A stretch of 64,000 bases of DNA from an uncultured virus (IMG/VR IMGVR_UViG_3300020048_000034) (taxonomy: Duplodnaviria > Heunggongvirae > Uroviricota > Caudoviricetes). Made by a program: the position numbers and the translations under genes. Within the stretch, counting starts at the first letter, position 1, and each line of letters opens with the position of its first letter. The notes beneath the pieces were generated by a model. The model did no database searches, had not been told where the DNA came from, and was given only the letters and a program-made list of their open reading frames with translations. The stretch lies in the IMG/VR virus record IMGVR_UViG_3300020048_000034, one strand, 5' to 3'. This document shows, in pieces, positions 8,274 to 31,617 of the stretch.

Positions 8274-8651
8274 ATGAATATATATTTAGCTAGTGGGGCT
8301 AGCAATAGAATTTTAATAGAAGCAGTTAGATTATTAATAGAAAACACTTTTCCATTTAAGATAATTTCTTCATGGCATAGAACACCACCCATTGAAAATG
8401 TAACAGAAAGAGCGATAATAGATTTTAGAGAAATAGATATTGCAGATACAGTCATTGCTTTTTATCCCTATGGATTGAATGGAACAATTTGTGAACTAGC
8501 GTATAGTTTTTGTAAAAATAAGCACACACTTTACGTTAGGCCAGAAGATTCTCAAAGCGAAGATCCATTAATTATTGGATTATTTGATCCAAAGTTTGTA
8601 TTCCATAATATGAATGATTTAATGAACTATTTGCAAGGAATTTCAAAATGA
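8274..8651 (+). CDS. Nucleoside 2-deoxyribosyltransferase-like protein
   Basis: IYLAS, D..EI..AD.VIA, GT.CE..Y motifs. Confidence 0.75.
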   Translation: MNIYLASGASNRILIEAVRLLIENTFPFKIISSWHRTPPIENVTERAIIDFREIDIADTVIAFYPYGLNGTICELAYSFCKNKHTLYVRPEDSQSEDPLIIGLFDPKFVFHNMNDLMNYLQGISK

Positions 8652-11152: not shown

Positions 11153-12439
11153 ATGGTATATGTATTAAATAAAGATGGGAAACCACTCATGCCTAGCATT
11201 AGGCATGGAAAAATAAGAAGGATGTTGAAAGAAAAGAAAGCTGTAGTAGTTAGAACTACTCCTTTCACAGTTAAACTTCTCTACACTCCTAAGACTGAAA
11301 CAGTACAACCTCTAGTTCTAGGAATAGACCCTGGAAGTAAAACTTTATCAACAGTAGTTAGAGTTGAGAAAACTCCAAAGCTAGTTTACGTTTCTGAAGT
11401 AACTCTAAGAACTGATATTACTAGTAAGTTGAAAAAGAGAAGTTCCTATCGTAGAAACAGAAGAAATCGTAAAACTAGGTACAGACAAGCTAGATTTTTA
11501 AACAGGAAAAGGAAAGATAGATGGCTACCACCTAGTGTTGTTTCTAAACTTAATTCTCACAAGAAAGAGATAAAATTTATCTTTAACATCTTACCTGTTT
11601 CTAGAGTAATCCTAGAGAGAAATACTTTCGATGTTCATAAATTAAAGAATCCTAGTGTGAAGAGTACAGGATACAATCATGGTACACTCTACTTTTATGA
11701 GAATCATAGACAGTACGTTTTAACTAGAGATAAATACTGCTGTAAAAGTTGTAAAAAGAAAAATGTAGTTCTCAACACTCACCATGTAGTACTCAGAAGT
11801 AAAGGAGGAAGAGATCACTACTCTAACCTAGTTACGCTTTGTGAAAAATGTCATAAGAAAGTTCACAGTGGAAAATTGAAACTCTCTAAGAAACTTATTT
11901 CTAGTCTAGGAACAAGTGTAAACACTTTAGATGCTACTCATGCTACAATCATTTCTAAGAGACTAGAGGAGTTTCTCTTAAAACATAAAGAAAGAAAATG
12001 TTACAAATTTCTAACTACTTTTGGCTATGAGACAGTAGTAAAAAGGAGAATTCTAAAGTTAAAGAAAACTCACTACAACGATGCAATTTCTATATCCTAT
12101 CCTAGTAAAATCTCTTACTCTAAGACTAGGGCAGAATCTATGTTTAGAAAAATATCTGTGAGTAAAGGAGATTACCAGCAAACTAAAGGTGTAAGAAGTC
12201 AGACTAGAATCCCTACTTGCAAGATTCATGGATTTAGGAAGTTTGATGTAGTACAGTACCTTGGAAAATATTACATCATTAAAGGTAGAAGAAGTATAGG
12301 ATACTTTGAATTAATGAACTTTAACCTAGAATCAGTAAAATTAAGACCTGTACCTAAGTTTAAATTCTTAAAAAGGGTTAAAGCTAGAAAAAGTACTATA
12401 ACTATAGAAAGGAGAAGGAAACTTTTCTCGCCAAGCTAA
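11153..12439 (+). CDS. iscB: IscB RNA-guided endonuclease (second copy)
   Basis: Same PLMP/RuvC/HNH motifs, intact; nearly identical to copy 1 except the last ~50 aa. Confidence 0.95.
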   Translation: MVYVLNKDGKPLMPSIRHGKIRRMLKEKKAVVVRTTPFTVKLLYTPKTETVQPLVLGIDPGSKTLSTVVRVEKTPKLVYVSEVTLRTDITSKLKKRSSYRRNRRNRKTRYRQARFLNRKRKDRWLPPSVVSKLNSHKKEIKFIFNILPVSRVILERNTFDVHKLKNPSVKSTGYNHGTLYFYENHRQYVLTRDKYCCKSCKKKNVVLNTHHVVLRSKGGRDHYSNLVTLCEKCHKKVHSGKLKLSKKLISSLGTSVNTLDATHATIISKRLEEFLLKHKERKCYKFLTTFGYETVVKRRILKLKKTHYNDAISISYPSKISYSKTRAESMFRKISVSKGDYQQTKGVRSQTRIPTCKIHGFRKFDVVQYLGKYYIIKGRRSIGYFELMNFNLESVKLRPVPKFKFLKRVKARKSTITIERRRKLFSPS

Positions 12440-12543: not shown

Positions 12544-13446
12544 ATGGAAACTTTACAGTTTGTAGCAGAAATTACTAGAATTAAAATGTTGAACAAAATT
12601 AAAAAACTAATTGATGCAAATAGCCTTAAATTTGAATATGGAACAACATCTTATGATTCTTTTGACTACTATTATGATGGTAAAACTATTAAAAATAAAA
12701 GAATAGAAGTTCCAAAACCAGGCTCATTCTTTTCTTTTTATCCAGTAGGTTTAATTAATTTGGATAAAGGTGTTTATATTATTAAATTTTATATTTATAA
12801 TCCTAGAGATGATGAAGATTCAATTATGCCTATATATGGTATATGGTTAGGTGCTTACAGAAAAAAAGAAGATAAATATGATAAATTATTTGAAGAAGAG
12901 TTATTACCTATAAAATTAGATCAGAAATTTTCAAATGCTAATGACTTAGATTTAAAAATTCACTGTTTTTTAAAACAGTGGCATGAATTAATGGGTGAGT
13001 CTCTTACAGATTTTTCTTCAGAAATTTATAGTATTTTTGATTTACCACTTCCAAAAAAATATAGAAGTTGCCCACCAATAATATATAGAGGTCTAGGTAC
13101 TGGATTTGCTGATATTGATCCCACAGAACCATTGCATCTTGATAGTGAAAGATATCTTGCTAGTTGGACACCAAATAAAGAAATAGCTATAGATTACGCT
13201 GTCCATCAATCTGGAAGTGGAGTTATAATTAAAAAAGTTCCTAAGCCAAAAGATATGCTAATAAATATTAGTGAGTTCTATAAAAAAGCATTTGGAAAAA
13301 CTGTAAAAAAAGATAAATATGCATCACCTACAGAATTCTTTGTCAGTCATCAAAATGAAATAATTATGTTTGAAACTGATGAGGATGAAGTAGTTGAACC
13401 AGAAAATATAGAAGTAGTAGATGATAAAATTAGAGCTATACTTTAA
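12544..13446 (+). CDS. Putative ADP-ribosyltransferase (R-S-E type)
   Basis: IYRGLG ... ASWT...IA..YA ... QNEII. Confidence 0.6.
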   Translation: METLQFVAEITRIKMLNKIKKLIDANSLKFEYGTTSYDSFDYYYDGKTIKNKRIEVPKPGSFFSFYPVGLINLDKGVYIIKFYIYNPRDDEDSIMPIYGIWLGAYRKKEDKYDKLFEEELLPIKLDQKFSNANDLDLKIHCFLKQWHELMGESLTDFSSEIYSIFDLPLPKKYRSCPPIIYRGLGTGFADIDPTEPLHLDSERYLASWTPNKEIAIDYAVHQSGSGVIIKKVPKPKDMLINISEFYKKAFGKTVKKDKYASPTEFFVSHQNEIIMFETDEDEVVEPENIEVVDDKIRAIL

Positions 13447-13464
13447 TCAATTTTAAGGAAAAAT

Positions 13465-14082
13465 ATGAAACTACAAGCAGCACTATCTAAAAGAGAATTA
13501 GAATATATTGAACAAGTTGAACGAGAACGAGAAGAAATGGAAGAAGATGAATACTATGAAGGAGATCAATTTTCACATGGAGCTGAAAGACTTGGTTTAG
13601 ACTATGAATTACTCAGGTTTATTGATGAAAACTGGTTTTTTATGACAAAATGGGAGAATGAAAAAGGTGCATGGAATGAAATTAAAGATTTAGAAATACC
13701 TAGATCATTTAAAACTCCTAATAAATCTATACTTTATAGAGGCTTATTTTTATCTGAAACTGCCTTAAATAAGTTTGAAAATAATAAACCTGTAAAATTA
13801 GATACAGTAAAATTATCATCATGGACAGAACTTAAAAATGTAGCTCAAGAGTTCACTCACGATCACGGTGTTGTCATAAGTATGCCTGTTTCTAAATTAA
13901 AAATTTGGATATGTTTACAGCATCTATACCCATATTTAACTAGAAAAGATAGATATACTCAAGGAATGAGAGAAGTAATTGTTCATGGCACTGGTGTACC
14001 TAAAAATACTTTAACACCAGATATGGTTGTTTGGTCTAAATTTACCAAAAAAGGTAAATTAAAAGATATTAAAAAGAGATAA
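13465..14082 (+). CDS. Putative ADP-ribosyltransferase (R-S-E type)
   Basis: LYRGL ... SSWT...VA..F ... MREVIV. Confidence 0.6.
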   Translation: MKLQAALSKRELEYIEQVEREREEMEEDEYYEGDQFSHGAERLGLDYELLRFIDENWFFMTKWENEKGAWNEIKDLEIPRSFKTPNKSILYRGLFLSETALNKFENNKPVKLDTVKLSSWTELKNVAQEFTHDHGVVISMPVSKLKIWICLQHLYPYLTRKDRYTQGMREVIVHGTGVPKNTLTPDMVVWSKFTKKGKLKDIKKR

Positions 14083-14085
14083 TTT

Positions 14086-14475
14086 ATGAATTACCCCTTT
14101 AGGTATTATAAACCAATAGGAAGTTACTGTTTCTTCTTAACAGAGGAAGGTATCTTTAAAGCTAGGATTATTTATGTTTATGATAGAGGTAGAGATCAAC
14201 TTAATAAAGAACAATACATGTTTGATTACTACATTGAAGGATTTCCATATAGACTTTCTTTTGGAATAGATATTTTCGAAACAAGGGAAGAATGTGAGAA
14301 TTTAATAGATAAAGTTGATCTTTTAAAATTAAAAACTAATTTTGTGAATACTGATAAATTAAACCTTCATACAATTATTACCGATAAATCTATGTTACAT
14401 ATTAAAGCATTTGATAATGAAAAACTGGTATATGGTTTTTGGAATTTCATTGAAAAAATGATGAGGGGATACTAG
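14086..14475 (+). CDS. Hypothetical protein, paralog of the 10355 N-terminal domain
   Basis: YPFRY.KP.G..C.F.TE.G ... DY.IE..PY...FG.D.FET.EE shared. Confidence 0.7.
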   Translation: MNYPFRYYKPIGSYCFFLTEEGIFKARIIYVYDRGRDQLNKEQYMFDYYIEGFPYRLSFGIDIFETREECENLIDKVDLLKLKTNFVNTDKLNLHTIITDKSMLHIKAFDNEKLVYGFWNFIEKMMRGY

Positions 14476-16157
14476 TGAAAATTCAATTAATTGCTAGAAA
14501 TATTGTAAATAATAAGGAACTAGATTCCTTTTTATTAGGTCTATCTCAACATACTAATAAACAAGAAGTTAACAATTGGATTAAAAAACAACTTAGATAT
14601 TATTTTCAAGAGAAGTATAATGAAGTAAGACTAGTTAAAAAATATAAAGATAGTGATCCAGACTGGTTAAAAGATGGGGTTAAGAATGGAACAGCTTTAG
14701 AAGTAGTATTAGATAATGAAATAAGAAATAAATGTATTCATGTAATTGACTACTTTAACTCTCTTATTCCATTTGAACTAGATAAAATTCAAAAATTATC
14801 TTTTGAAGTTGCTGAAACAAAAGCTGATTTGTGGTTAGAAAAATTAAATGAAAAAGCTTCTTTAGAAGAAGATCCAGAAGGTATTAAAGTAGTTAGAGAA
14901 TACCCAGAAGGATTTAAATGGGTTAAAGTATTTTCAGAACAGTCTCTTAATAGAGAAGGTTTACTTATGAAACACTGTGTTGGAAGTTACTATGAGAAAG
15001 TAAAACATGGACACTGTGTTGTTTACTCATTAAGAAATCCAGATAATATTCCAAAATGTACTGTTGAAGTCATTAAAACTAGTGTAACTCAAATTAAAGG
15101 ATTTGCCAATGGTTCAATTAAAGAAAAGTATGTAAAATATGTTAAAAACTTTATTAAAACTCCTATAAAAGGTGAAAAGTATGAAAAAGTAGAGGATTTA
15201 GATAATATTGGAATCATAGAACAAGAAGGAATATGGCATAACATCCAACATTTACCAGATAATTTTATAATAGATGATTTTCATGAGTTTAAAAAATTCA
15301 ATATTAAAAAATTACCCAATATAATTATTCTTCATCAAATTAAATTTACAGGTTGTAATATAGATGAAATTAATGGAGTTAAAGGGGATCATTTAATTTT
15401 AAAAGCTTGTAAAATTAAAGAAATAAAAGGAATAGTTGCTGTTACCTCATTAAGTATTTATAATTGTAAACCTTTAATGTTTAAAAAAGGATCTAAAGTA
15501 ACTCAATACTTTGCTGGAGATCCATCTAAAATAGGTAATTTAGAAATTACTTCCAGTGTAAAAACATTGCTTATTAATTTCTATAAAGGAAAGGAATTAC
15601 CATTTACAGTTCCTAAAAAGTTACACTCTTTAAATTTATTACATTGCCCTAATCTAAATAGTTTGCCAGAAGTTGAAGTAAACCAATGCTTTATTAAAAA
15701 ATGTAAAAATATTACTAGTATTCCAGAAGGAATGAAAATACTTCAAAAACTAGAGTTAAAAAATAGTAATGTATCAAGTATTTATGGATCAGTAAATATA
15801 TGTAATATTATGGGAAATAAATCTTCTTTAAAAGTATTAAGAAATATTGAAAGATGTACTATTTGGAATTCACCTAAATCCACAGACTTAGAAGAATTAA
15901 GTTGTGATACTTTAGGGTGGGCTGATTTAAGGATAGAGGAAAATAGCTTATTAGCTGAAAAAATCAATTGTAAAACAATGGAACTTAGTTTAAATAATTT
16001 GACTCTATTTAAACTTCCTTCTACTGCTAAGATAGATTCTTTAACGATTGTCATTCCTAAAAATGACACGAAATATGAAGAAGATTTTTTAAAATTAAAT
16101 CCATTTTTGCATAAAAATCAGCTAACAATATATATTGAAAGTGCAGAGTTCAGTTAA
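14475..16157 (+). CDS. PcfJ-like domain + divergent LRR protein (paralog 2)
   Basis: ARNIVN, PDWL, REG..MKHCV, YSLR..P.CTVE, QIKG; irregular LRR C-terminal half. Confidence 0.8.
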   Translation: MKIQLIARNIVNNKELDSFLLGLSQHTNKQEVNNWIKKQLRYYFQEKYNEVRLVKKYKDSDPDWLKDGVKNGTALEVVLDNEIRNKCIHVIDYFNSLIPFELDKIQKLSFEVAETKADLWLEKLNEKASLEEDPEGIKVVREYPEGFKWVKVFSEQSLNREGLLMKHCVGSYYEKVKHGHCVVYSLRNPDNIPKCTVEVIKTSVTQIKGFANGSIKEKYVKYVKNFIKTPIKGEKYEKVEDLDNIGIIEQEGIWHNIQHLPDNFIIDDFHEFKKFNIKKLPNIIILHQIKFTGCNIDEINGVKGDHLILKACKIKEIKGIVAVTSLSIYNCKPLMFKKGSKVTQYFAGDPSKIGNLEITSSVKTLLINFYKGKELPFTVPKKLHSLNLLHCPNLNSLPEVEVNQCFIKKCKNITSIPEGMKILQKLELKNSNVSSIYGSVNICNIMGNKSSLKVLRNIERCTIWNSPKSTDLEELSCDTLGWADLRIEENSLLAEKINCKTMELSLNNLTLFKLPSTAKIDSLTIVIPKNDTKYEEDFLKLNPFLHKNQLTIYIESAEFS

Positions 16158-16188
16158 ATAAGAAAATTTTAGAGAAAGGTATGATAAG

Positions 16189-16788
16189 ATGACATTCAAG
16201 AAAGACCTCATAGATAATAGTATTATTTTAGAAAATCATTTTAAATTAACTAGTGGAAGACATTCTCAGTATTACATTAATAAAGATGCAATTTACTGTA
16301 ATCCATTTGTTTTTAATTCAACAATTAAAAATATGATAAGTTTGATTAGCGAAAATTTTATTAGAATTGAAGACTATGATAACATTGTTTATTTGTATGA
16401 TATAATTACTGGTCCAGCTATTGCAGGTGCAGTGCTAGCTTCTCCTATAGCAAATCATTTCATGAAAAGTTTTGTTTACCCAGAAAAAGGATTAAACAAA
16501 ACAATGTGTTTTAATCGTGGCTATGACAAAGTAATTAGAAATAAGAATGTATTGATTGTAGAAGATATTATTACTACTGGAAATTCTGTAATGTCCACTA
16601 TAAATGCTATTAAAGATTGTGGTGGGAAACCAGTTGGAGTAGTATGTATTTGGAATAGATCTGGTAATAAATCTTTATTTGATATTCCATTATATTCCTT
16701 AATTACTGAAGAAGTAATGTCTTACTTACCAGAAGAATGTCCTTTTTGTGAAGCAAATATACCACTAGTAGATCCAAAGAAAATATAA
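16189..16788 (+). CDS. pyrE: Orotate phosphoribosyltransferase
   Basis: HFKLTSGRHS.YY, PRPP motif VLIVEDIITTGNS, C-terminal ECPFC..NIP. Confidence 0.9.
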   Translation: MTFKKDLIDNSIILENHFKLTSGRHSQYYINKDAIYCNPFVFNSTIKNMISLISENFIRIEDYDNIVYLYDIITGPAIAGAVLASPIANHFMKSFVYPEKGLNKTMCFNRGYDKVIRNKNVLIVEDIITTGNSVMSTINAIKDCGGKPVGVVCIWNRSGNKSLFDIPLYSLITEEVMSYLPEECPFCEANIPLVDPKKI

Positions 16789-16910
16789 AGGAGAAAATAT
16801 GGATTTAAAAACCCACATTAATTTTGTTAAGTGCAGCTCATGTACTATTTGTAAAAAAGAACCTATAGAAGAATTCGAAGTTCAAAAACTTAACTATTTA
16901 GGAAACGTCT

Positions 16911-17504
16911 TTGAAAAATCCGATAATTCATATTAGACTATTAGGGAAGAAAGAAAAGAAAACTTTCTTCAATAAATATAAAACAGCTACTCCTAGACAT
17001 ATTACCCATTGTGGAGTGTATGCTGCATTCCATGAATTGAAGTGTATTGGAGGATTAGTTTTAGACAAAAAACCTTTAAACACTGGTTTTACTGCTAAAA
17101 ATGTAGTTGGTATCTCTTATTTATATATAGCTCCTAAGTATAGAGGTCTAGGCCTAGGAGAGACATTAATTTCAAAAATTTTAAATAAATATAAGAATAT
17201 TACTTTGACTACTGGATTATATACTTATGGATCAATTATTCATATTTTTAAAAAATTAAATTTTAGAATTTTTAGAAAAATAGGAAATATTAATTTTTGG
17301 ATTTTTGAAAAAGAAGTATCAAGCATTACAGAAGAGTCATTAGATTGGGTTTGTAAGAAGTATTCTTGTAAGATGCTAAAGTCAGTTTGTATAAAAAGAC
17401 AGTTGTTAGCTAGTTTACCGTCTAATTTTCAAAAAAGATCATTGTACTATGAAACATGTTTTAACTGTTCAAATGCTTTTAAAGAAGGAGAGACAGAAAG
17501 ATGA
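16911..17504 (+). CDS. GNAT acetyltransferase with a Cys-rich C-terminal domain
   Basis: LYIAPKYRGLGLG acetyl-CoA motif; C..C..C..CxxC tail. Confidence 0.7.
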   Translation: MKNPIIHIRLLGKKEKKTFFNKYKTATPRHITHCGVYAAFHELKCIGGLVLDKKPLNTGFTAKNVVGISYLYIAPKYRGLGLGETLISKILNKYKNITLTTGLYTYGSIIHIFKKLNFRIFRKIGNINFWIFEKEVSSITEESLDWVCKKYSCKMLKSVCIKRQLLASLPSNFQKRSLYYETCFNCSNAFKEGETER

Positions 17505-18214
17505 GTTTAAAGCCTATATTTATTAATGCTAGAGATATATCTGATGCTTGGTTTCAAACAATTTATGCCTGCTTAGATTATGGTAAAGAATTTGTTATTG
17601 ATAGTGGATCTTTTGCTGGTCAAAAAAGACTAGAACTAGATTACATAACAATTCATATTAAACAACCTGGATATCCTTATGATAAAAAATCATTAGATGA
17701 AATGATGCCAAAAATTCCATCACACTATTGTGTACCTGATCCAGTATGTGAAGGATACATGGATGAGTATCTTCCTTATTTAATGACTGAAGAAATGAAA
17801 GAGAACGAGTGCTACACCTACGGGAGTCGTATTTGGTCTAAACTAGGAGAAAATGTTAGGTCGAATCAAGTTCATTACATAATTGATACTTATAAAAATA
17901 AAGGTTTCAGAAATAATCAAATGGTGTTACAAATTGCTCAACCAATTGATTTATTTATTAATGATCCTCCTTGTTTAAGGTATCTGGACACTAGAATTCA
18001 AGACAACAAACTTCATTTTTTTGGGTACTGGAGAAGCTGGGATTTATGGTCTGGATTCCCCGTAAATTTAGGGGGGATTCAATTCCTTAAAGAATACATG
18101 GCTAACGAAATAGGAGTGGAGGATGGAGAAATGATTTGTTCTAGCAAAGGAATTCACCTCTATGATCATGTATTTGATATTGCTAGAAAGTTAAAAGGGG
18201 ATAATTGTAGTTAA
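17501..18214 (+). CDS. thyA: Short thymidylate synthase (ThyA fold)
   Basis: YTYG, PPCL, RSWD, GFPVN (Asn, dUMP-type), HLY motifs. Confidence 0.85.
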   Translation: MSLKPIFINARDISDAWFQTIYACLDYGKEFVIDSGSFAGQKRLELDYITIHIKQPGYPYDKKSLDEMMPKIPSHYCVPDPVCEGYMDEYLPYLMTEEMKENECYTYGSRIWSKLGENVRSNQVHYIIDTYKNKGFRNNQMVLQIAQPIDLFINDPPCLRYLDTRIQDNKLHFFGYWRSWDLWSGFPVNLGGIQFLKEYMANEIGVEDGEMICSSKGIHLYDHVFDIARKLKGDNCS

Positions 18215-18239
18215 AATCAATTAAAAAGGAGTTTAAAAA

Positions 18240-18701
18240 ATGAGTAATGTAAGAAAAGCAACAGCATTGTTAAGGGCAGCATTTGAGTTCTTAGATTCAG
18301 ACGAGTTTGAAAATGTTGAAGAAATTGGACAAGAGGAAGAAGAAACAGAACTTAACTCTGAGGATGAACAACTTATTAGAGATTACAAAAATGGGTTTTC
18401 ATGGGTTAAGCTAGTTTCTCGTAATGCATTAAAAAGAGAAGGTAAGCTGATGATGCATGATGTTGCGGATTATTATCCTAAAGTTGCTTCAGAAAAGTAT
18501 GAAGTTTATTCATTACGTGATCCATCAAACAAGCCTCATTGTACTATTGGTGTTGATCTAAAGAAACGTGCAATTGATCAAATTGTTGGTAAAAGAAATG
18601 AACCACTAGATCTAAAATATGTTGGATATGTGTGGAATTTTATTAAATATCCACTTAACAATGGTCCAAAGTATAGATCAGTAGTTGATATCCCAGAATA
18701 A
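18240..18701 (+). CDS. Leader + stand-alone PcfJ-like domain (HC changed to HD)
   Basis: MSNVRKATALLRAAFEFL leader; REGKLMMHDV, YSLRD..PHCTI, QIVG. Confidence 0.8.
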   Translation: MSNVRKATALLRAAFEFLDSDEFENVEEIGQEEEETELNSEDEQLIRDYKNGFSWVKLVSRNALKREGKLMMHDVADYYPKVASEKYEVYSLRDPSNKPHCTIGVDLKKRAIDQIVGKRNEPLDLKYVGYVWNFIKYPLNNGPKYRSVVDIPE

Positions 18702-18717
18702 TTAATATAATTAAAAG

Positions 18718-18751
18718 GGGGACTATTAATAAAATAGTCCCCTTTCTTTTT
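18718..18751 (+). terminator. Rho-independent terminator
   Basis: GGGGACTATT/AATAGTCCCC stem + T tract. Confidence 0.8.
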
Positions 18752-18770
18752 ATTAGAGGAGATAATAATT

Positions 18771-19457
18771 ATGAGAAGAGTTCATAATAAAAAATGGGAA
18801 GATTTAGGGATATCTAGATCTACTTATTTAAGATATCTTGACAAAGGAATTACTCCAACACCTCCTAAAAACCCTAGAAGAATTAAGAATGAAATTAATT
18901 CTATATGGAATTTTGTAGACCCAGAATGGGTATATAGAACTTGTAATAGAATGTCAAAAGGTAATATGGAATTGTATGATTATTTATTGGATTATGTCTA
19001 TACTTTGAAATTAGAAGTAGCTGAAAATCCAAAAACATATATTGTGGCAAGGTTGAGAAATAGAATTAGAGATTTTATTAGATTTAAAAAAAAGTTTTCA
19101 GAATACATTGATGGGAGTAATTTAAAAATGAAAGATTTAAGAAAAGCAAGAATACTTCTAAAAGCAGCGATGGAATTATTAGAAGAAATAGATGGAAATA
19201 TTTTATTTCCAGAATATATCGGTGATATTGGTTTTGATGCTGTAATAGATACAATTGAAAATGGTGAATTTTTATCTAGTGAGTTTGAGAAATTAAGAGA
19301 CAAACTCCTTAAATATTCTAAAATATACAGAAAGAAATTTTCATGGAAAGAAATTCATGATACATTAATCATGGATGATATTGATGAAACAATGATTGAA
19401 AAATTGAGACGATATTTTAGAAATTGTTTTTCTGAAATGAATTATCAATCTAGTTAA
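18771..19457 (+). CDS. HTH/sigma-region-2-like protein read in frame into a leader-bearing protein (internal start 19128)
   Basis: LGISRSTYLRY; TYIVARLRNRIRDFIR; internal GGAG-RBS + MKDLRKARILLKAAMELL. Confidence 0.55.
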   Translation: MRRVHNKKWEDLGISRSTYLRYLDKGITPTPPKNPRRIKNEINSIWNFVDPEWVYRTCNRMSKGNMELYDYLLDYVYTLKLEVAENPKTYIVARLRNRIRDFIRFKKKFSEYIDGSNLKMKDLRKARILLKAAMELLEEIDGNILFPEYIGDIGFDAVIDTIENGEFLSSEFEKLRDKLLKYSKIYRKKFSWKEIHDTLIMDDIDETMIEKLRRYFRNCFSEMNYQSS

Positions 19458-19470
19458 TAGGAGTTAAAAA

Positions 19471-19841
19471 ATGAACAATGTAAGAAAAGCAAAAACACTT
19501 TTAAAAGCAGCAACAATGTAAGAAAAGCAAAAACACTTTTAAAAGCAGCAATTGAATTATTAAAAGAAGAAGTAAACTCTTCTATTACTGCGACTAGATT
19601 TATACCTGGGAGTTGCTATGTTCATAAATACATAGATGATTATGCTTTTTGTTTTCTCAGAAATGTGAACGAAAATAAAGCTAAAATCTTACCATTTGAG
19701 GCTAAAAGTGTTAAAGACACTGAAATATTCTATTTTAATGATGAAGATGTAAATAATTTTAAACAGTTAAGTATTTTAGATGTGCATAGAATTTCTAAAG
19801 AAAACAATCATGATTGGTTTTTAAAGTGGTTCTCTAGATGA
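19471..19841 (+). pseudogene. Leader-bearing 110-aa protein frameshifted by a 38-bp tandem duplication
   Basis: Removing one copy gives MNNVRKAKTLLKAAIELLKEEVNSSITATRF...WFSR*. Confidence 0.8.
19474..19549 (+). repeat. Exact 38-bp tandem duplication
   Basis: AACAATGTAAGAAAAGCAAAAACACTTTTAAAAGCAGC x2. Confidence 0.95.
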
Positions 19842-19858
19842 ATTAAAAGAGGTTTAAT

Positions 19859-19957
19859 ATGCCATTCCTTAAAGCAGCTTTAACTAGTAAGGAGTTAAAA
19901 AATATAAAAGAAATAGAGAAAGAAATAATACGAAGAGAAGAATTAAAATATTTGTAA
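19859..19957 (+). CDS. 32-aa ORF resembling the N-terminus of the 13465 protein
   Basis: MPFLKAALTSKELKNIKEIEKE vs MKLQAALSKRELEYIEQVERE; GAGG RBS. Confidence 0.5.
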   Translation: MPFLKAALTSKELKNIKEIEKEIIRREELKYL

Positions 19958-19991
19958 AAGCTAACTACATTGAAATTATAAGGAGTTAAAA

Positions 19992-20447
19992 ATGAATAAT
20001 TTAAGAAAAGCAAAAGTTCTTTTAAAGGCTGCACTTACACTTTTAAATCAAAAAGAAAATTTAATAGCAGGATCAGATGATTTTAGTGATCTAAGTATTG
20101 AAGATTTAGCTAATAAATTACATAAATTATATGCAGCTAGTGATCCATTAAATCATTTTCCAGAGGGTACTCATTATATTGACCATAGAGGAATACATAA
20201 TATCATTTTAGGTGTCACTATTGATGATTCCCTAAATATGTGTAAAAACCACAATATTAAAGTAAGAACTAAGAAAAAATCTCCAGTAGGTAATTATAAA
20301 TTTAACTTTATAATTGCTCATACTAATTCTTGTGAATTACAGATCCATGCTGGTGCTGTAAGAAAAAGAGTAGGTGTTGCTGATAATGTCGTAACTATTT
20401 CATTCATACCCTTTGAATATGCTATGGTTCCTCAAATTAAAAAATAA
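19992..20447 (+). CDS. Leader-bearing hypothetical protein
   Basis: AAGGAG RBS; MNNLRKAKVLLKAALTLL leader. Confidence 0.8.
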   Translation: MNNLRKAKVLLKAALTLLNQKENLIAGSDDFSDLSIEDLANKLHKLYAASDPLNHFPEGTHYIDHRGIHNIILGVTIDDSLNMCKNHNIKVRTKKKSPVGNYKFNFIIAHTNSCELQIHAGAVRKRVGVADNVVTISFIPFEYAMVPQIKK

Positions 20448-20480
20448 AATATTCTATGCTGCTTAATATGGAAGAAAATT

Positions 20481-20759
20481 ATGGAAATTAGAAAAAGAAT
20501 GTCAGACTCAAATATTGGTATTCAGAAATATGGAAAAGTATTATTTGCTGACCCAGTAAATAATAAATATCCAATTGATACTGAGAAACACATTAGGGCA
20601 GCATGGGCATACATACACATTCCTAGAAATGCTGCTAAGTACTCTCCAGATGAAGTAGAAATAATTAAAAATGCAATTAGAAAAGAGTCTAAAAAATACA
20701 ATATTAATTTAGTAGCAAGTTTGATATCTTCAGCAATTAAATTACTACAAAAAAGATGA
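20481..20759 (+). CDS. Small protein with ADP..KYPIDT..HIRAAW.YI domain (DUF6582-like, recalled from phage head-associated proteins)
   Basis: Motif visible in the translation; family name from memory. Confidence 0.55.
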   Translation: MEIRKRMSDSNIGIQKYGKVLFADPVNNKYPIDTEKHIRAAWAYIHIPRNAAKYSPDEVEIIKNAIRKESKKYNINLVASLISSAIKLLQKR

Positions 20760-20793
20760 TATTCATTTAGTGAATAGCATTAAGGATTAAAAA

Positions 20794-22635
20794 ATGGACT
20801 ATATTGAACTAAATGCAAATTCTAGGAATATTGCTAATATTGATGAAGTGAAAAATTTTATTGACGAACTAATAAAGCATGAAAAAGAAAAATTAATAAT
20901 CAACTGGGTGACGAAAAAACTCAGAAAATATATTATTGATGAACTCCCATCAATTAAACCTTTTAGAGTTTATTATGGAGATGATGTAGATTCTTTCCCA
21001 GACTGGCTAAAAAAAGCTATTAAGGAAGAAAATGCTTTTACTGTGGTACTTAAAAATAAATTTGTAAATAGTTGCGTTCATATCTTAGATTATCTTAATT
21101 CTCTAGATGAAAAAGAGTTAAGTAAAATTTATAAAATTAATTATCCAGAAATGGATAACAAAGCTAAATTATGGACTACTAAACTAAAGAAAGAAACTGG
21201 TGAATGGGATGATTTCAAAGGTCAAAAAATTGTTAGGAAATACAAAGATGGTGTTAAATGGTTAGAATTATTTTCTCAAAAATGCTTAGATAGAGAAGGT
21301 TCACTGATGAACCATTGTGTTTCTACTTATCATGCAGACGTGAGAGATAAATTAGCTAAGATATATTCTTTAAGGGATGTAAAAAACACTCCTCAGTGTA
21401 CTATTGAAGTTAGAGATGGGGGAGTAAATCAAATAAAAGGATATGATGATCAAGAAATTGATTTAATTTTTTCAAAATATGTAAAAGACTTTCTTAATAA
21501 TCCAATTGAAGGAAGAAAATATGGTTTTGCAAAAGAACTATTCAATGCTTATCTAAAATATGAAAAAGGTGAGTATAAGATAAATAGTGATAGTACAATA
21601 AAAAGTGGTTTATTCAAGGGCGATTTAGATTTACGTGGAACAAATACTAAATTACCTAATAAGTTACATGTAAGAGGTGATTTACTCTTAAGTGAATATA
21701 AATTACACTTTTTACCAGATAATTTAACAGTAGATGGAACATTAGATTTATCTAATTCCAATATTAGACATTTACCAAAAAAGTTAAAAGCTGCACAATT
21801 AGATTTAACTAACACTATTATTGAAGAAATACCAGATGATCTAGAATCAAAACAAATTATTTTCTCTAAATCTAGAGTTTCAAAATTACCAGATAATTTT
21901 ACTACATTCAATTTATTTTTAGGTGGTTCTTCTATAAAATCTTTACCTAAAAATCTAGTTGTAACTGGAACTTTAAACTTAGAAGATTCAGATATTGAAA
22001 GTATTCCAGAGGATATAAAATTAAAAGGTAGTTTAGTATTAAATTATAAAATTAAATTTCTTCCTAAATCGCTTAGAACTATTAACGGATCATTAAATTT
22101 AGGAAATAATGCTATAATTACATTACCAGATAATTTAACAGTAAGGCATACTTTTTCCGGTGTTTCTTCAAAGATTAAACAATTACCAGATAATCTAACA
22201 GTTTTAGGAAAAATGAATTTTCCTAGTCATGTAGTAAAAATAGGAAAAAATTTAAAAGTAAAAGAACTGGAAATAGGATACTATTGTAAGATAGAAGTTA
22301 TTCCCTCTAACATAACTGTAAAAACTTTATTTATTAATTGCGATAATGTTGTTAAATTACAGGATAATTTTACAATTGAAGAAACTTTGCATATAAATAA
22401 TTGTGTAAATTTAACTGAGTTACCTGAAAATCTAACTGTTCCAAATTTAATTATTAGAAGTGATTCTATCTCATCTTTACCTATAAATTTAAAAGTTGAA
22501 GAACTTGATATTTCAGGTGCACCTAACATTAAGAAATTACCAAATGATCTGCAATGCAATGTAATTTATGTTAATTCTTCCAATAGATTGAATTTTACAA
22601 GTTCTAAATTTAAAAAGAAATTAAAAGTTCTATAA
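20794..22635 (+). CDS. PcfJ-like domain + LRR protein (paralog 3)
   Basis: RNIAN, PDWL, REG.LMNHCV, YSLRD..P.CTIE, QIKG; LP.NL.V repeats. Confidence 0.8.
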   Translation: MDYIELNANSRNIANIDEVKNFIDELIKHEKEKLIINWVTKKLRKYIIDELPSIKPFRVYYGDDVDSFPDWLKKAIKEENAFTVVLKNKFVNSCVHILDYLNSLDEKELSKIYKINYPEMDNKAKLWTTKLKKETGEWDDFKGQKIVRKYKDGVKWLELFSQKCLDREGSLMNHCVSTYHADVRDKLAKIYSLRDVKNTPQCTIEVRDGGVNQIKGYDDQEIDLIFSKYVKDFLNNPIEGRKYGFAKELFNAYLKYEKGEYKINSDSTIKSGLFKGDLDLRGTNTKLPNKLHVRGDLLLSEYKLHFLPDNLTVDGTLDLSNSNIRHLPKKLKAAQLDLTNTIIEEIPDDLESKQIIFSKSRVSKLPDNFTTFNLFLGGSSIKSLPKNLVVTGTLNLEDSDIESIPEDIKLKGSLVLNYKIKFLPKSLRTINGSLNLGNNAIITLPDNLTVRHTFSGVSSKIKQLPDNLTVLGKMNFPSHVVKIGKNLKVKELEIGYYCKIEVIPSNITVKTLFINCDNVVKLQDNFTIEETLHINNCVNLTELPENLTVPNLIIRSDSISSLPINLKVEELDISGAPNIKKLPNDLQCNVIYVNSSNRLNFTSSKFKKKLKVL

Positions 22636-22651
22636 TATAAGATGGTAAAAT

Positions 22652-25279
22652 ATGAAAAATAATAAGTATTTAATAGAATTAAATGCTAGAAACATTGTTA
22701 ATATAAAAGATATTTCTGATTACATTAATCATATCTCTTCAAATATAAAAACAGTAGAAATTAAAAATTGGGTATCTAAACAAGTTAAAGAATACTTGCA
22801 GAATGATATTGAATCAGTTGAAAAAGTAACTAAATCTAAATCTACTGATCCAGATTGGTTGAAGAATAGTGTTAAAGAAGGAACTGCATTAAAAGTAGAA
22901 TTAACTGATAATTTTAAGGATAATACAAATCTTATTTTAACCTATTTAGATATTATTGATGACAAAAAAGAACTTTCTAAAATTTATAAAATAAAATACA
23001 AAGAGATGTTAGATAAAGCTAATTACTATTTTATAAATAATGATTCTAAAGATATTACAGTAGTTAGAGAGTACAAAAGTGGATTTAAGTGGGTTACACT
23101 TGATTCATTACATGCTTTCAATAGGGAAACAAAGTTAATGAATCATTGTATATCTACTGATCCAGAGTACGTTAAAAAGTTAGAAAGTGGTAAAGGTATT
23201 TATTATTCACTTAGAAGCAGCAGTAATAAACCCCACTGCACAATTGAAGTAGAAAAAAGACAAATAATACAAATAAAAGGACATTCTGATGGTCCAGTTA
23301 TTCAAAAATATGTTAGATATGTTTTAGACTTTATTAAAAATCCTATTGAAAATAAATATAAGAAAATCCAAGGGAAGAATGATTTAATGAATATTGGTTG
23401 TATCTTACAAAAAGGAGTACTACACAATATTTATAAACTTCTAGATGGATTTATATATAATGGAACATTAGACTATACAGATGATAAATATTTAAAGAAA
23501 CTTCCAGATAATTTAACTATTAAAAGACATTTGAATTTAACTGGTACAAATATTACTGAATTACCAAAAAATTTAAGTGTTGGGGGAAGTATAATAGCAC
23601 GCAAAACACTAAATTTAAAAAAGATTCATTCCTCGCTAAAAACCTATGATTTAGATTTATCCGAATCTGGAATAGAAGAATTACCAGATGAATTAATATT
23701 AAAAAGAGATTTGAATTTAGTCAAATCCAAAGTTAAAAAACTTCCAAGTAGATTAAAAATTAAGGGTTCATTATATATTGAAAAAACAGATATTACAGAA
23801 TTACCAGAAGGTTTAACCTGTAGTTTTTTAAGTTTAGAGAAGACTGATATTAAAGAACTTCCAAAAGTTTTAAATATAGATAACTTAATATTATCTAAAA
23901 AAATTACTTTTTTGCCAAAAAATTTTAAATGTAATGGTTCTGTTACTTTTAGTAGTTCCTCTATTACTGAACTTCCAGAAGGGTTAAACATAAAAGAATT
24001 TTATGTTGAATCAATAAATAATGGTAAGTTAGAAAAATTACCTGAAAACCTTGTTACAGATAGACTAGATTTAACAGGTACAAAAATTAAAGAACTTCCT
24101 AAGAAGCTTAAAATAAAAGAATTACATTTATCAGAAACAATAAAAGAACTTCCATCTGATATTAAAGTAGACCTTTTAATTATACCTAATTATAGTGAAT
24201 TGGTTAAGCTCACTAAAAATTTAAAAGTTAAAACAATAGAGTTAAGCAATTACCTTGGAGGTAAAGATTTAATAAATAGTGGTACTGTAATAGAAGAAGA
24301 TTTATCAATATCTGAGTCAAACATACCTTCTATTCCTTCAGATTTAAAAATCGGTAGAAGTTTATATATGGATACAACATTAATTTCTAGTTTGCCTGAA
24401 AACTTAAATTTACAAAATTTAAACATTAGTCGTTGTAAAAACTTAAAAACTTTACCCGAAAATATAAAGGTTAGTGAATCATTTATAGCTATTGATAGTG
24501 TGATAGAAGAGTTACCAGAAAATTTTAATTGTAAACTTATAAATATAAGTAATTCTAAAGTTAAAAAATTACCAGAAAATTTAAAAATAGAAGAGTTAAG
24601 AATAGACAATAGTGATATAACAGAATTACCAAAGAAGTTAATAGTGGACACATTATACTTATACAATTCTAAAGTTACTTTTATTCCTAAAGAAATTACT
24701 ATAAAGAAAAATTTAGTTCTTCCAGAAAGTGATGTTATTATTGAAGAAGGAATAGATTTAAGTAATATAGAATTGAATACATATAAAAGTAAAATTAAAA
24801 AATTACCTAATAATTTAACAGTTAGAAATTTACTTTTAAATACAAAAATTAAAAAATTACCAAAAAATTTAACTATTTTAGATAGGGATAATAGTTTTGT
24901 AATTCCTACTTTTTCTCCTATAACTGAAATACCTTCTGATTTTAAATGTAATGCTAAAATGTATTTTAAAAGGTCTAGAATTAAGAAAATACCAAAAAAC
25001 TTTAAATTTCTTAATTCTGTTAACTTTGAAAGTTCAGAGTTAACAGTTCTTTCAGAAAATATGGAAGTTAATGGAGATTTAAACTTAAAATATTGTAAGA
25101 TGGAATATTTGCCAGAAAATTTAACTGTAAAAGGAGATTTAGAAATAACAAATCTTAACAGTAACAAAATTCCTGACAGTATAAAAATTGATGGTATGTT
25201 ATATATGCCTCTTAATAAGATACTTGATAATGTTTGGTATATCCCAGAACATTTAAAATCAAAAGTAGACCCTATATGA
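22652..25279 (+). CDS. PcfJ-like domain + long LRR protein (paralog 4)
   Basis: ARNIVN, PDWL, MNHCI, YSLR..PHCTIE, QIKG; about 600 aa of LP.NL repeats; ends IPEHLK like paralog 1. Confidence 0.8.
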   Translation: MKNNKYLIELNARNIVNIKDISDYINHISSNIKTVEIKNWVSKQVKEYLQNDIESVEKVTKSKSTDPDWLKNSVKEGTALKVELTDNFKDNTNLILTYLDIIDDKKELSKIYKIKYKEMLDKANYYFINNDSKDITVVREYKSGFKWVTLDSLHAFNRETKLMNHCISTDPEYVKKLESGKGIYYSLRSSSNKPHCTIEVEKRQIIQIKGHSDGPVIQKYVRYVLDFIKNPIENKYKKIQGKNDLMNIGCILQKGVLHNIYKLLDGFIYNGTLDYTDDKYLKKLPDNLTIKRHLNLTGTNITELPKNLSVGGSIIARKTLNLKKIHSSLKTYDLDLSESGIEELPDELILKRDLNLVKSKVKKLPSRLKIKGSLYIEKTDITELPEGLTCSFLSLEKTDIKELPKVLNIDNLILSKKITFLPKNFKCNGSVTFSSSSITELPEGLNIKEFYVESINNGKLEKLPENLVTDRLDLTGTKIKELPKKLKIKELHLSETIKELPSDIKVDLLIIPNYSELVKLTKNLKVKTIELSNYLGGKDLINSGTVIEEDLSISESNIPSIPSDLKIGRSLYMDTTLISSLPENLNLQNLNISRCKNLKTLPENIKVSESFIAIDSVIEELPENFNCKLINISNSKVKKLPENLKIEELRIDNSDITELPKKLIVDTLYLYNSKVTFIPKEITIKKNLVLPESDVIIEEGIDLSNIELNTYKSKIKKLPNNLTVRNLLLNTKIKKLPKNLTILDRDNSFVIPTFSPITEIPSDFKCNAKMYFKRSRIKKIPKNFKFLNSVNFESSELTVLSENMEVNGDLNLKYCKMEYLPENLTVKGDLEITNLNSNKIPDSIKIDGMLYMPLNKILDNVWYIPEHLKSKVDPI

Positions 25280-25293
25280 TAGGAAGATCTAAG

Positions 25294-26496
25294 ATGAAAT
25301 TTAATTCAGTAAATAAATTAATCACAAGAGCAATTACATTGTTAGAAGCAAAAGTTCCTTCTTTAAAAGAAAATACTAGAATTATAGTATTTAACCCTAA
25401 ACATAAAAAATACTTTCTAGGAACAATTGATAAAGTACTAGAAGATAGATATGTTATTGTTTATGATAACAACAATGAGAAAGTGCAGTACATGTTTCAA
25501 TCAGAACATTTAATTGGAAAAGGTGTTGATAAACAATACAAACAACCAATTGAAGAAGAGCAAGTAGGAAACTTTGTAACTAGTTACTATGTCAAACCTA
25601 CCATTATAATGTTACAGAAGAAAGAAGTTAAGGAAGAACATTCTTACATTAAGGCATTATCCTCTTTAAAAGAAAATGATAGAGTAATAGTATTTTGTCC
25701 TAAAAGAAAAACTATAACTATGGAAGATAGAGAATCCAGATATTTTACATGTTTCATTAAATCAGTTGAAATATCAAAGTCTGTTGTTGCTCCATCAATA
25801 GAATTTAAAATTAAGTTTGATAATGGAGGAGGAACATTCTTAATGGTTCCTACTAACATAGATTACAGTAAACTAAGTTTAAATTCTAAATTTTTAGATA
25901 TTGGGGAATTACAATATATTATAGGAAAAGCCAACACTACTAAGGAGGAACATGGTATTCCAGAGTATGAGTTATATAAATACATGACTGAATTATTTGT
26001 TAAACCTTCTATATTTAGTAAAAAATTCTCTAGTAAAAAAGAACAAGAAGAAATAATAAAACAGTTTAATGAGTTAAAACAAGTAGAACAACATGGAATA
26101 TCGGAGTCAGAGAAAAATCCAGATAATGGTAAATGGGTTTTTGATACTAATATAGGTAAAGTTAAGAATATAAAAGAAGTTAATTCTGAATATATGGATA
26201 TAATTGATAATCCTAATTATGATAAATCATCTAAAGATCCAAGATTAAGATATAAAAAAATTGCTATATTAAATGAGGAATATAAGAAGAAAGATCTTAA
26301 AAGAATAAAAGAAAATGCTAGAATAGATTCTTTAAAGAAAAATAAAAAGAAATACTATGATCCAGTGACGGATAAAGTATATGATCATATACCTGATGGA
26401 CTAGAAGTAGAACCAGGAGCTGATGATGAGTTTGATGGAAAACCAATTAGACTTAGATATCCTGGATGGAAGAAAACTTATAATAGGGGGTTTTAA
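25294..26496 (+). CDS. Leader-bearing protein with two SH3/Tudor-like repeats
   Basis: MKFNSVNKLITRAITLLEAK; repeated LKEN.R.IVF.P ... DN ... IGK ... I ... VKP. Confidence 0.6.
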   Translation: MKFNSVNKLITRAITLLEAKVPSLKENTRIIVFNPKHKKYFLGTIDKVLEDRYVIVYDNNNEKVQYMFQSEHLIGKGVDKQYKQPIEEEQVGNFVTSYYVKPTIIMLQKKEVKEEHSYIKALSSLKENDRVIVFCPKRKTITMEDRESRYFTCFIKSVEISKSVVAPSIEFKIKFDNGGGTFLMVPTNIDYSKLSLNSKFLDIGELQYIIGKANTTKEEHGIPEYELYKYMTELFVKPSIFSKKFSSKKEQEEIIKQFNELKQVEQHGISESEKNPDNGKWVFDTNIGKVKNIKEVNSEYMDIIDNPNYDKSSKDPRLRYKKIAILNEEYKKKDLKRIKENARIDSLKKNKKKYYDPVTDKVYDHIPDGLEVEPGADDEFDGKPIRLRYPGWKKTYNRGF

Positions 26497-26498
26497 TT

Positions 26499-26834
26499 TT
26501 GAAAAATGATATTAAAGAATTAATGGAAAGTGCTACTAGACCTAGAATTCCAGAAGGAACTAGACTAGTTGTTGAAGATCCTAGAAACAAAAATCATTAT
26601 TGGTTGTCAACAGTTAAATTTGTAAAAGAAAACGTTTTATACATTGAGCTAGACAACGGCGCAAAATATCAATTTTTTAAAGACTCTCATAGAGTTATTG
26701 GAAAAGGAGTAGATAAAGTTGTTACTCATCCAATTTTAAAAGAAGAAATTTGGAAGTTCATTAAGTCATTTTATGTTAAACCAGATGAGGATATGATTGC
26801 TCCAGAAAACATGAGGTATTTGAAAAAAGGATGA
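26499..26834 (+). CDS. Single-domain paralog of the 25294 repeat
   Basis: TR.VV..P ... DN ... IGKGVDK...PI..E....F..S.YVKP. Confidence 0.7.
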   Translation: MKNDIKELMESATRPRIPEGTRLVVEDPRNKNHYWLSTVKFVKENVLYIELDNGAKYQFFKDSHRVIGKGVDKVVTHPILKEEIWKFIKSFYVKPDEDMIAPENMRYLKKG

Positions 26835-26838
26835 ATTA

Positions 26839-27663
26839 ATGAAATCCTATTTTAATAAAATCATTCCAAATATTACTAGACTTAAATTTGATTACTTTGA
26901 AATTGATAAACAATTTAAGGACCCAAATGGATATATTCTAGAAAGTAATGAATTTAAAGCTATGAATCATTTTAAATTTGAAAATTCAATTATAGGAATA
27001 TATCCATTTAAAAATTTTTATATTTTAAGACATATTTATTTAAAATCTTTTTCACCAAATAGATCTATTATTTCCTCATATTATATTACTAGTGTACCTA
27101 TTAGTGGAAAGCCCTTAGAGTATATTAATAATAAAACATTAAAAATTCATGACTTGTTGTGTGAATGGGGAGATTCTGAAGATCAAACTATTTTAAAGAA
27201 AATGGAAGACTTAGGAATTAATAGTGCTTTTAGTAAATATAGTGGTGTTCTTTATCGTGGACTTAGAGTAGATGAAAAAATATTAGATCATTTAAAAAAT
27301 GGGTACTCAGTCAATTATAATGACGAAAATACTTCAACCGACTATCCTTTTTCTAGCTGGTCTAAAAATCTTTCTACTGCTACAAGATTTTCTGTAGATC
27401 CTCACGATTTAAAATTAAATAAATTTTTTGGTGTAATATGCGAATATAAACCAAAGAGTTATGAGATATTAATTGATATTAATTTGTTTGAAGAAAAAAT
27501 GTTTAATAATAGAGGATATTATAAATTTTTTAATGAAGAAGAAGTAATTTTAATTAATACTTCAAACTCAATGTTATTAAGACCAAAAGAATTATTATAT
27601 TGTGGTAGAGAAAATGGTTCTGTTATAAGGATAGATTATCCTAAATTTAAGAAAAAATTCTAA
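26839..27663 (+). CDS. Putative ADP-ribosyltransferase (R-S-E type)
   Basis: LYRGL ... FSSWSKN..TA..F ... EEEVIL. Confidence 0.65.
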   Translation: MKSYFNKIIPNITRLKFDYFEIDKQFKDPNGYILESNEFKAMNHFKFENSIIGIYPFKNFYILRHIYLKSFSPNRSIISSYYITSVPISGKPLEYINNKTLKIHDLLCEWGDSEDQTILKKMEDLGINSAFSKYSGVLYRGLRVDEKILDHLKNGYSVNYNDENTSTDYPFSSWSKNLSTATRFSVDPHDLKLNKFFGVICEYKPKSYEILIDINLFEEKMFNNRGYYKFFNEEEVILINTSNSMLLRPKELLYCGRENGSVIRIDYPKFKKKF

Positions 27664-31614: not shown

Positions 31615-31617
31615 GAA

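Follow-up and report, generated by a model that had tools for sequence, protein, structure and literature searches.

The uncultured virus IMGVR_UViG_3300020048_000034 (Caudoviricetes) carries, in the 64-kb stretch of DNA that we analyzed (hereafter the window, part of a 140,269-nt contig), four copies of a short cassette that joins a ribosome-binding site (RBS) and an 18-residue leader peptide to otherwise unrelated small proteins. The cassette spans ~66 nt and consists of a GGAGT-type RBS, an ATG, and 18 codons of a cationic amphipathic helix. Its copies, all on the + strand, start at 18228, 19114, 19460, and 19982, with the leader ATGs at 18240 (copy A), 19128 (copy B), 19471/19509 (copy C), and 19992 (copy D); we found none elsewhere in the window. 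The evidence assembled below supports a portable leader module joined to unrelated cargo. By analogy with the capsid-targeting sequence (CTS) of phage T4, the single most likely mechanism is that of an address tag routing the cargo to the prohead, a role that we put forward tentatively.

The leader cassette and its cargo

An earlier note on this DNA, made from the sequence alone, had placed the same 18-residue leader at 18240, 19128, 19471, and 19992, and inspection of the sequence, a repeat family, a DNA pattern, a protein profile, and a DNA model all recovered it there. The 71-nt direct-repeat family has five members with 66–100% identity to the reference copy. A 31-letter DNA pattern drawn from the leaders occurs without mismatch at five places in the window, against 0.00 expected from 100 shuffles, and a DNA model of the cassette detects the same five places only. 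A 22-residue leader hidden Markov model (HMM) scored the four copies at 40.0–45.5 bits, values that are high by construction because the model was built from these same copies, with the next six-frame match in the window at 4.5 bits. Copy A (18228..18293) comprises a GGAGT RBS, the ATG at 18240, and 18 leader codons (MSNVRKATALLRAAFEFL; 45.5 bits with the HMM and 59.6 bits with the DNA model). Copy B (19114..19181), with a GGGAGT RBS-like word, the ATG at 19128, and 18 leader codons (MKDLRKARILLKAAMELL; 41.1 and 53.1 bits), lies within a longer open reading frame (ORF), here called ORF B, and copy D (19982..20045) has a GGAGT RBS, the ATG at 19992, and 18 leader codons (MNNLRKAKVLLKAALTLL; 42.3 and 57.0 bits). 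The first repeat unit of copy C (19460..19521) retains the RBS, the ATG at 19471, and 14 leader codons, followed by an out-of-frame stop that closes a 16-codon ORF (45.7 bits with the DNA model). The related helices that had been proposed at the N-terminus of the 25294 protein and the C-terminus of the 20481 protein did not hold up, scoring −0.3 and −2.8 bits with the leader HMM, within a background of 1102 weak matches. A decayed fifth cassette considered at 19859–19905, with an LKAALT peptide and a AAGGAGTTAAAAA word, scored 4.5 bits with the protein HMM and 0.2 bits with the DNA model and was rejected as unsupported.

Homology among the copies starts at the Shine–Dalgarno (SD) word and stops after codon 18. 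Among the 94 + strand ORF starts examined in the window, 58 have a generic SD, and the form GGAGT...AAAAATG was found at the four leader copies only. One short N-terminal peptide is thus common to otherwise unrelated small proteins of this phage. The statement that four genes start with the leader stands for A and D. As assembled, however, the 19128 leader is residue 120 of the fused, 228-aa ORF B and not the start of that ORF, and the leader at 19471 is broken by a 38-bp duplication, although it is N-terminal in P0004, a relative of C from another sample.

Beyond the leader, the downstream proteins of the four copies appear, at the sequence level, to share no detectable similarity. BLASTP similarity among the leader proteins rests on the leader region, and when the first 20 residues of each were removed for a cargo-only comparison, Smith–Waterman z-scores for the six pairs ranged from −0.84 to 2.86. 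The observed score of the top pair, A–B (z = 2.86), was reached by 4 of 300 shuffles, and BLASTP between these two cargo regions gave no alignment at E ≤ 100. Pairwise comparison therefore detected no cargo homology, nor did we find homology over the whole protein length, as in a simple tandem paralog family; the earlier view that the proteins are unrelated after the leader agrees with these results.

The leader itself is constrained at the peptide level. Residues R5, K6, A7, L10, L11, A13, A14, and L18 are invariant in the four copies, and the peptide can be drawn as a helix with a Leu/Ala face (L4, A7, L10, L11, A14, position 15, L17, and L18), a basic face, and a net charge of +2 to +4. Synonymous changes occur at the invariant L10, L11, A13, and A14, and the variable positions keep hydrophobic or basic character, in P0004 too. 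The proportion of synonymous differences (pS) between copies is 0.18–0.56, and the ratio of the nonsynonymous proportion to it (pN/pS) lies at 0.39–0.84 in all six pairs, a range that carries little statistical weight, as it derives from 17 codons and ~11 synonymous sites per pair. Together, these patterns indicate selection on the leader peptide, not merely on its DNA. An explanation at the RNA level was rejected: RNAalifold on three cassettes gave −2.04 kcal/mol with seven pairs and one compensatory change, and hence no conserved fold.

The leader also behaves as a module, having been swapped onto the N-terminus of a PcfJ paralog (A), carried by a gene that has run together with its upstream neighbor (B), and made the site of a duplication (C). 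The chimeric build of A, the retention by the B leader gene of its own RBS despite the fusion, and the constraint on the peptide beyond the DNA all speak for the portability that the earlier note had proposed. Its further suggestion, that DNA homology could drive cargo shuffling, finds little support: the four-way invariant DNA run measures only 13 nt, and the copies are old by their synonymous divergence (0.18–0.56). Recombination at this spot is nevertheless evident from the way A and B are built and from the duplicated stretch in C.

Architecture of the four leader genes

Gene A (18240..18701, + strand) encodes 153 aa arranged as the leader helix, an acidic low-confidence linker (~residues 19–44), and a PcfJ core. 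Residues 26–121 match PcfJ (PF14284) with E = 1.8e-8 and 34.8 bits against a cut-off of 25, and BLASTP aligns the core at 38–45% identity with its counterparts in 14475, 20794, and 22652, large PcfJ/LRR-like proteins in which ~125 other residues stand ahead of the core. Judged by these alignments, the ~125 residues that normally precede a PcfJ core have been swapped in gene A for the leader and the acidic linker, which fits the earlier recognition of one leader protein as a bare PcfJ domain. An AlphaFold2 (AF2) model of gene A, based on a four-row alignment with its paralogs, gives a predicted local distance difference test score (pLDDT) of 76–89 for the core, 51–55 for the leader helix, and <50 for residues 22–37. 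A Foldseek search with this model returned weak rows only, mostly GNAT-type acetyltransferases (best E 2.7e-3, TMq 0.35), and may offer a lead on the PcfJ fold only. The window holds five PcfJ-domain genes (8648–10342, 14475–16157, 18240–18701, 20794–22635, and 22652–25279). The large ones encode 560–875 aa, and three of these four (14475, 20794, and 22652) run on into long LRR-like repeat arrays with 27–33% mutual identity; the set is a paralog expansion. Between gene A and ORF B lies a strong intrinsic-terminator-like hairpin (18715..18745, + strand) of 13 pairs followed by a T run.

ORF B (18771..19457, + strand) encodes 228 aa, in which a sigma-70-region-2-like N-part (residues 1 to ~110) is fused in frame to the leader gene (residues 120–228). 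Two stand-alone homologs of the N-part, P0007 (103 aa, 64% identity) and P0008 (102 aa, 60% identity), both end at B residue 110–111, ~9 codons before the B leader ATG. ORF B is therefore a read-through fusion of neighboring genes, in which the leader ATG, equipped with its own GGGAGT word, was once a gene start. A 151-nt contig of a second study spans 19031–19181 with one other letter and no gaps, and thus the frame of ORF B is not a private error of this assembly. In the N-part (18771–19127), P0007, and P0008 alike, one and the same place matches Sigma70_r2 below threshold (E 0.02–0.04, 14–15 bits, cut-off 24), and this family may represent a minimal sigma-like or helix-turn-helix regulator heading the cluster. 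Searches with the N-part alignment found no homologs in IMG/VR or among GenBank phages. The C-part has no Pfam or PHROG family and no usable Atlas structure match; among 5.8 billion clustered proteins the only relative of B was itself, and an AF2 model of B without an alignment was unusable (pLDDT 41).

The junction in ORF B has further features of its own. An A8 run ending in G lies just ahead of it (19086–19094). A shift to the −1 frame would meet a stop at 19109–19111 and yield a product of nearly the same length as the stand-alone homologs, and a shift to the +1 frame would end at 19123–19125, immediately ahead of the leader ATG. We considered a dnaX-like slippery heptamer, A-AAA-AAG, which lies in the right frame at 19088–19094, but this word is common in the window (92 occurrences against 82 expected) and so offers no evidence of programmed frameshifting at this point.

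Copy C contains a perfect 38-bp tandem duplication (19474..19551, + strand; 2.1 copies, 100% matches, score 156), which lies inside the leader and shifts the frame. As assembled, the frame of the 19471 ATG reads MNNVRKAKTLLKAATM and then stops after 16 codons. The cargo frame (19509..19841, + strand; 40.0 bits with the HMM) holds a second copy of leader codons 2–18 followed by ~90 cargo residues and has no start codon of its own, with no ATG ahead and only a GTG ORF at 19665–19841 in the ORF listing; the C peptide reported earlier is readable only when one repeat unit is skipped. P0004, a 48-aa protein on a 1,256-nt contig of another sample, begins with M at the leader in the unduplicated form and is identical to C at 28 of 37 residues across the leader/cargo junction, from which it follows that the unduplicated gene is the ancestral form. 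Public contigs from the likely source run are interrupted at the duplication, with record 1 reaching to 19483 and record 4 beginning, after 17 letters that could not be placed, at 19512; they neither confirm nor refute the duplication, which may be a genuine lesion, a polymorphism, or a product of assembly. C has no Pfam or PHROG family.

Gene D (19992..20447, + strand) encodes 151 aa, the leader followed by orphan cargo, with no Pfam or PHROG match, no usable Atlas structure match, and only itself among the 5.8 billion clustered proteins. The gene after D (20481–20759) encodes a DUF6582 protein (Pfam 3e-25), whose relatives occupy 24 IMG/VR loci of 38–67% GC; the leader HMM detected no leader gene near them (best 6.0 bits).

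Candidate roles of the leader

Phage T4 provides the closest parallel to this arrangement. Its internal proteins Ip1–3 are described as sharing only an N-terminal leader that directs packaging, as encoded in variable loci, and as each blocking a modification-dependent GmrSD nuclease (PMC12373910); the CTS is given as the first 10 residues of IPIII, and gp21 removes the tag after L/I-X-E (PMC9026906, PMC3012670). On these accounts, the leader described here resembles the CTS of the T-even ip genes in that a short N-terminal leader is the sole common part of otherwise unrelated small accessory proteins (PMC12373910, PMC9026906, PMC3012670), the genes are clustered in variable loci of a modified-DNA phage, and the leader is portable to other cargo. 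By this analogy, the helix would serve as an address or docking element through which the various cargo proteins reach a single partner, most likely the assembling prohead core. The cargo would be packaged and then clipped after a Glu near the helix end, either at an A-x-E at residues 14–16 (three of four copies) or at an L-x-E just after the helix (two of four), and finally injected with the heavily modified DNA as anti-defense proteins. Packaging, cleavage, and injection are steps that we infer from the T4 precedent, and a phage with many DNA-modification genes would be expected to meet the same kind of modification-dependent nucleases as T4.

A second parallel comes from phiKZ-like giant phages, in which the N-terminal propeptides of many different head-packaged proteins, both head and ejection proteins, are reported to be removed after Glu by a gp21-related protease (PMC9026906), with phiKZ-type proteases cutting after S/A-X-E (PMC9026906, PMC3012670). 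The A-x-E at residues 14–16 of leaders A, B, and C recalls these sites, but it is a low-information motif that D lacks, and the phiKZ-type propeptides, as far as that source describes them, are not one shared sequence. An L-x-E stands immediately behind the helix of copies B (LLE) and C (LKE), and not in A or D. The promoter-early stem-loop (PeSL) cassettes of T4-type phages, for which modular shuffling has been proposed, likewise appear in the accounts available as short repeats at gene starts, in hyperplastic regions (PMC2839356, PMC4122927). Whereas PeSLs are presented there as a non-coding promoter plus terminator, the repeat in our window is an RBS plus a coding leader that starts at the SD. 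The leader cluster contains a single terminator-like hairpin (18715–18745; five across an 11-kb scan), promoter-like sites number 61 against 72.9 expected, and the PeSL arrangement of a repeated sigma-70-like promoter with a stem-loop terminator between genes was not found.

Several observations weigh against routing to the prohead. No single protease motif fits all copies, as D has T at position 16 and neither an L/I-x-E nor an A/S-x-E within its first 30 residues. Family scans of the window ORFs found no recognizable head, tail, scaffold, or protease gene in these 64 kb of the 140,269-nt contig. In favor of such routing, Peptidase_S77 exceeds its cut-off in four of five distant contigs that share the thymidylate-synthase-like (Thy-like) gene of the window, but these are distant kin, with the topoisomerase subunit 31–33% identical in three of the five and the 934-aa helicase-like protein matched in none. 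The T4 late-promoter word, TATAAATA, occurs 20 times in the window against 21.6 expected, and never upstream of the leader genes. The helix, at 18 residues, cationic, and amphipathic, also differs from the 10-residue T4 tag, with which it was compared by description only. Unlike the CTS, moreover, it lacks a consistent L/I-X-E site and accompanying head or protease genes in the window, and it has one copy fused behind another gene and one broken. To these points may be added the low statistical weight of the pN/pS ratios and the confinement of the leader to four copies in the window, all within 1.8 kb.

The leader is also scarce beyond the window, a further point against routing to the prohead. 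Three pattern scans of IMG/VR gave no matches, although the first two patterns required Arg at residue 5, and P0004-like copies would escape them. The HMM scan of the window and its relatives that the earlier note had called for yielded the four copies in the window but none in 10 whole, distantly related contigs (E ≤ 1), in 21 loci around Thy-like homologs, or in the 24 DUF6582 loci. Against 1.84 billion representative proteins, the leader profile made only six matches at E ≤ 0.001, namely A, B, and D themselves, one ortholog fragment (P0004), and two proteins made of repeats that contain a TPR-like helix. Matches set aside as chance were two on JGI metagenome contigs (one within the gene of a PLP enzyme but not in its frame, and one in a bacterial intergenic inverted repeat of 67% GC), 57 in GTDB genomes (best 17.0 bits, many with stops or inside other ORFs), an out-of-frame match in L024, and 18-nt matches of a 21.5-kb contig, a length estimated to arise by chance. 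A fifth leader-like gene start is present on a 481-nt contig of the likely source run (run X1, record 3), with 6 other letters in 45 relative to 19467–19511, its own RBS-like word, an in-frame stop upstream, and both a different continuation and a different upstream sequence; it could belong to this genome, outside the window, or to a relative from the same sample. With no head genes in view, no uniform cleavage motif, a different length and charge, and no late-promoter word, we hold the role as a capsid address tag to be a tentative proposal, which remains the single most likely mechanism.

Among the alternatives, the helix might dock its cargo on a common non-capsid partner, either the upstream sigma-70-region-2-like protein, with the B fusion as a ‘Rosetta stone’, or a host factor, and the four genes would then encode alternative partner subunits or regulators. 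ORF B joins a 103-aa-type protein and a leader protein in one chain, in the same frame in the second-study contig, and this fusion makes the adjacent sigma-region-2-like protein a partner candidate; a neighbor fusion can, however, come from one lost stop codon without interaction. All three members of the N-part family give the Sigma70_r2 match at the same place, but under the Pfam cut-off. Leader genes B–D directly follow the sigma-like gene, behind the terminator, whereas gene A, with the same leader, belongs to a separate transcription unit upstream of that terminator. Residues L4-A7-L11-A14-L18 form a hydrophobic face of the helix-packing type. Overall, we consider such docking unlikely. 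Complex prediction for the B N-part with the leader scored 0.02 against a mark of 0.32, a value that speaks neither for nor against it. In a more specific form, the leader would be a docking helix for the sigma-70-region-2-like protein, the leader genes swappable subunits (region-4-like modules or anti-factors), and B a natural single-chain pair; if this long shot were true, the leader genes would retarget or switch one minimal phage transcription factor.

Ordinary local paralogy would derive the genes from one ancestor by tandem duplication, with the helix as a structural or oligomerization element and the rest diverged or partly replaced beyond recognition. The copies are adjacent and co-oriented within 1.8 kb, in a region where paralog families abound (the five PcfJ genes, the pair 25234/26499, and the two HNH genes), and their synonymous divergence (0.18–0.56) shows that they are not recent. 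The cargo of A, however, belongs to a different family, PcfJ, with leaderless paralogs, and although the A–B z-score of 2.86 is borderline, the other five pairs have z ≤ 1.6 and BLASTP of A against B finds nothing. The AF2 model of A does not place the helix confidently against the core, and the linker between them has a pLDDT <50. On balance, descent from a single ancestral gene is doubtful.

Expression-cassette hitch-hiking, in which the RBS and first codons are copied as a working translation start and the peptide has no function, would account for homology that sets in precisely at the SD and stops after codon 18, and for an RBS form specific to leader genes; A-rich early codons are, moreover, typical of efficient translation starts. 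It accords poorly with invariant residues that carry synonymous changes and with variable positions that keep their character, P0004 included, and 58 of the 94 ORF starts already have a generic SD without the leader, which together render it rather improbable. Metagenome mis-assembly as the source of the repeated leaders, or of the duplication and fusion, is very improbable. In its favor, the two 38-bp units match perfectly, it is exactly at this spot that public contigs from the likely source run are interrupted, and 38 equals k−1 for k = 39 (our own remark only). Against it, public contigs cover A, B, and D without differences, the second study has 19031–19181 and 19641–19791 with one other letter each, and the four copies differ mutually at many sites and are thus not collapsed or duplicated reads; only the duplication in C may still be such an artifact.

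Genomic setting and implications

The window has a GC content of 28%, its + strand carries every family-matching ORF of at least 100 aa, and no near match to it was found among GenBank phages. Its DNA probably stems from an aquatic metagenome, and a run of a second study contains short pieces of it at 99% identity. Pfam/PHROG-type family scans identified a QueD-like PTPS, two QueC-like proteins, an amidoligase, and the Thy-like enzyme, together with a DNA methylase, a split type II topoisomerase, an RNA ligase, and HNH endonucleases. The QueD-like PTPS, the Thy-like enzyme, the two QueC-like genes, and the amidoligase, located at 1806–2282, 17501–18214, and 31036–33232, are candidates for DNA hypermodification. 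The closest GenBank phage matches of the Thy-like enzyme are annotated as thymidylate synthases or pyrimidine/dUMP hydroxymethyl-transferases, at 26–31% identity. Comparison of 17 genes of 12544–27663 with the 21 loci around Thy-like homologs of other phages recovered homologs of the PRTase, GNAT, and Thy-like genes and none of the other 14 (12544–16157 and 18240–27663), and hence the leader stretch is lineage-specific. The leader genes are adjacent accessory genes in this lineage-specific, fast-changing stretch of a large AT-rich phage.

Other duplicated or mobile elements occur in the window. Two RRXRR/HNH endonuclease genes, at 6798–8087 (429 aa) and 11153–12439 (428 aa), share an identical 25-nt upstream sequence plus first codons and are probably copies of one mobile homing-endonuclease gene. 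The genes at 25234–26496 and 26499–26834 are adjacent paralogs, with 38% identity between the second protein (111 aa) and residues 22–113 of the first, counted from its internal Met at 25294; a weaker second repeat lies inside the first protein, and no family match was found for the pair. At the window edge, a 79-aa ORF (267–506) matches a Cas12f1-like TNB domain/transposase zinc ribbon (Pfam 1.5e-17) and looks like a TnpB-type fragment.

The leader locus shows module evolution in several forms: a PcfJ paralog has had its N-terminus exchanged, two genes have fused by read-through, and the tag itself has undergone a tandem duplication. If the leader does have another partner than the prohead, it would be a compact natural docking peptide worth characterizing. 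If, instead, it is a head-loading tag, it would mark a hot spot for proteins destined for injection, a PcfJ domain among them, in a phage with heavily modified DNA that is far from the T-even phages, and a search of metagenomes for the signal sequence, like the one that served for the T-even ip genes, could then find such cargo.

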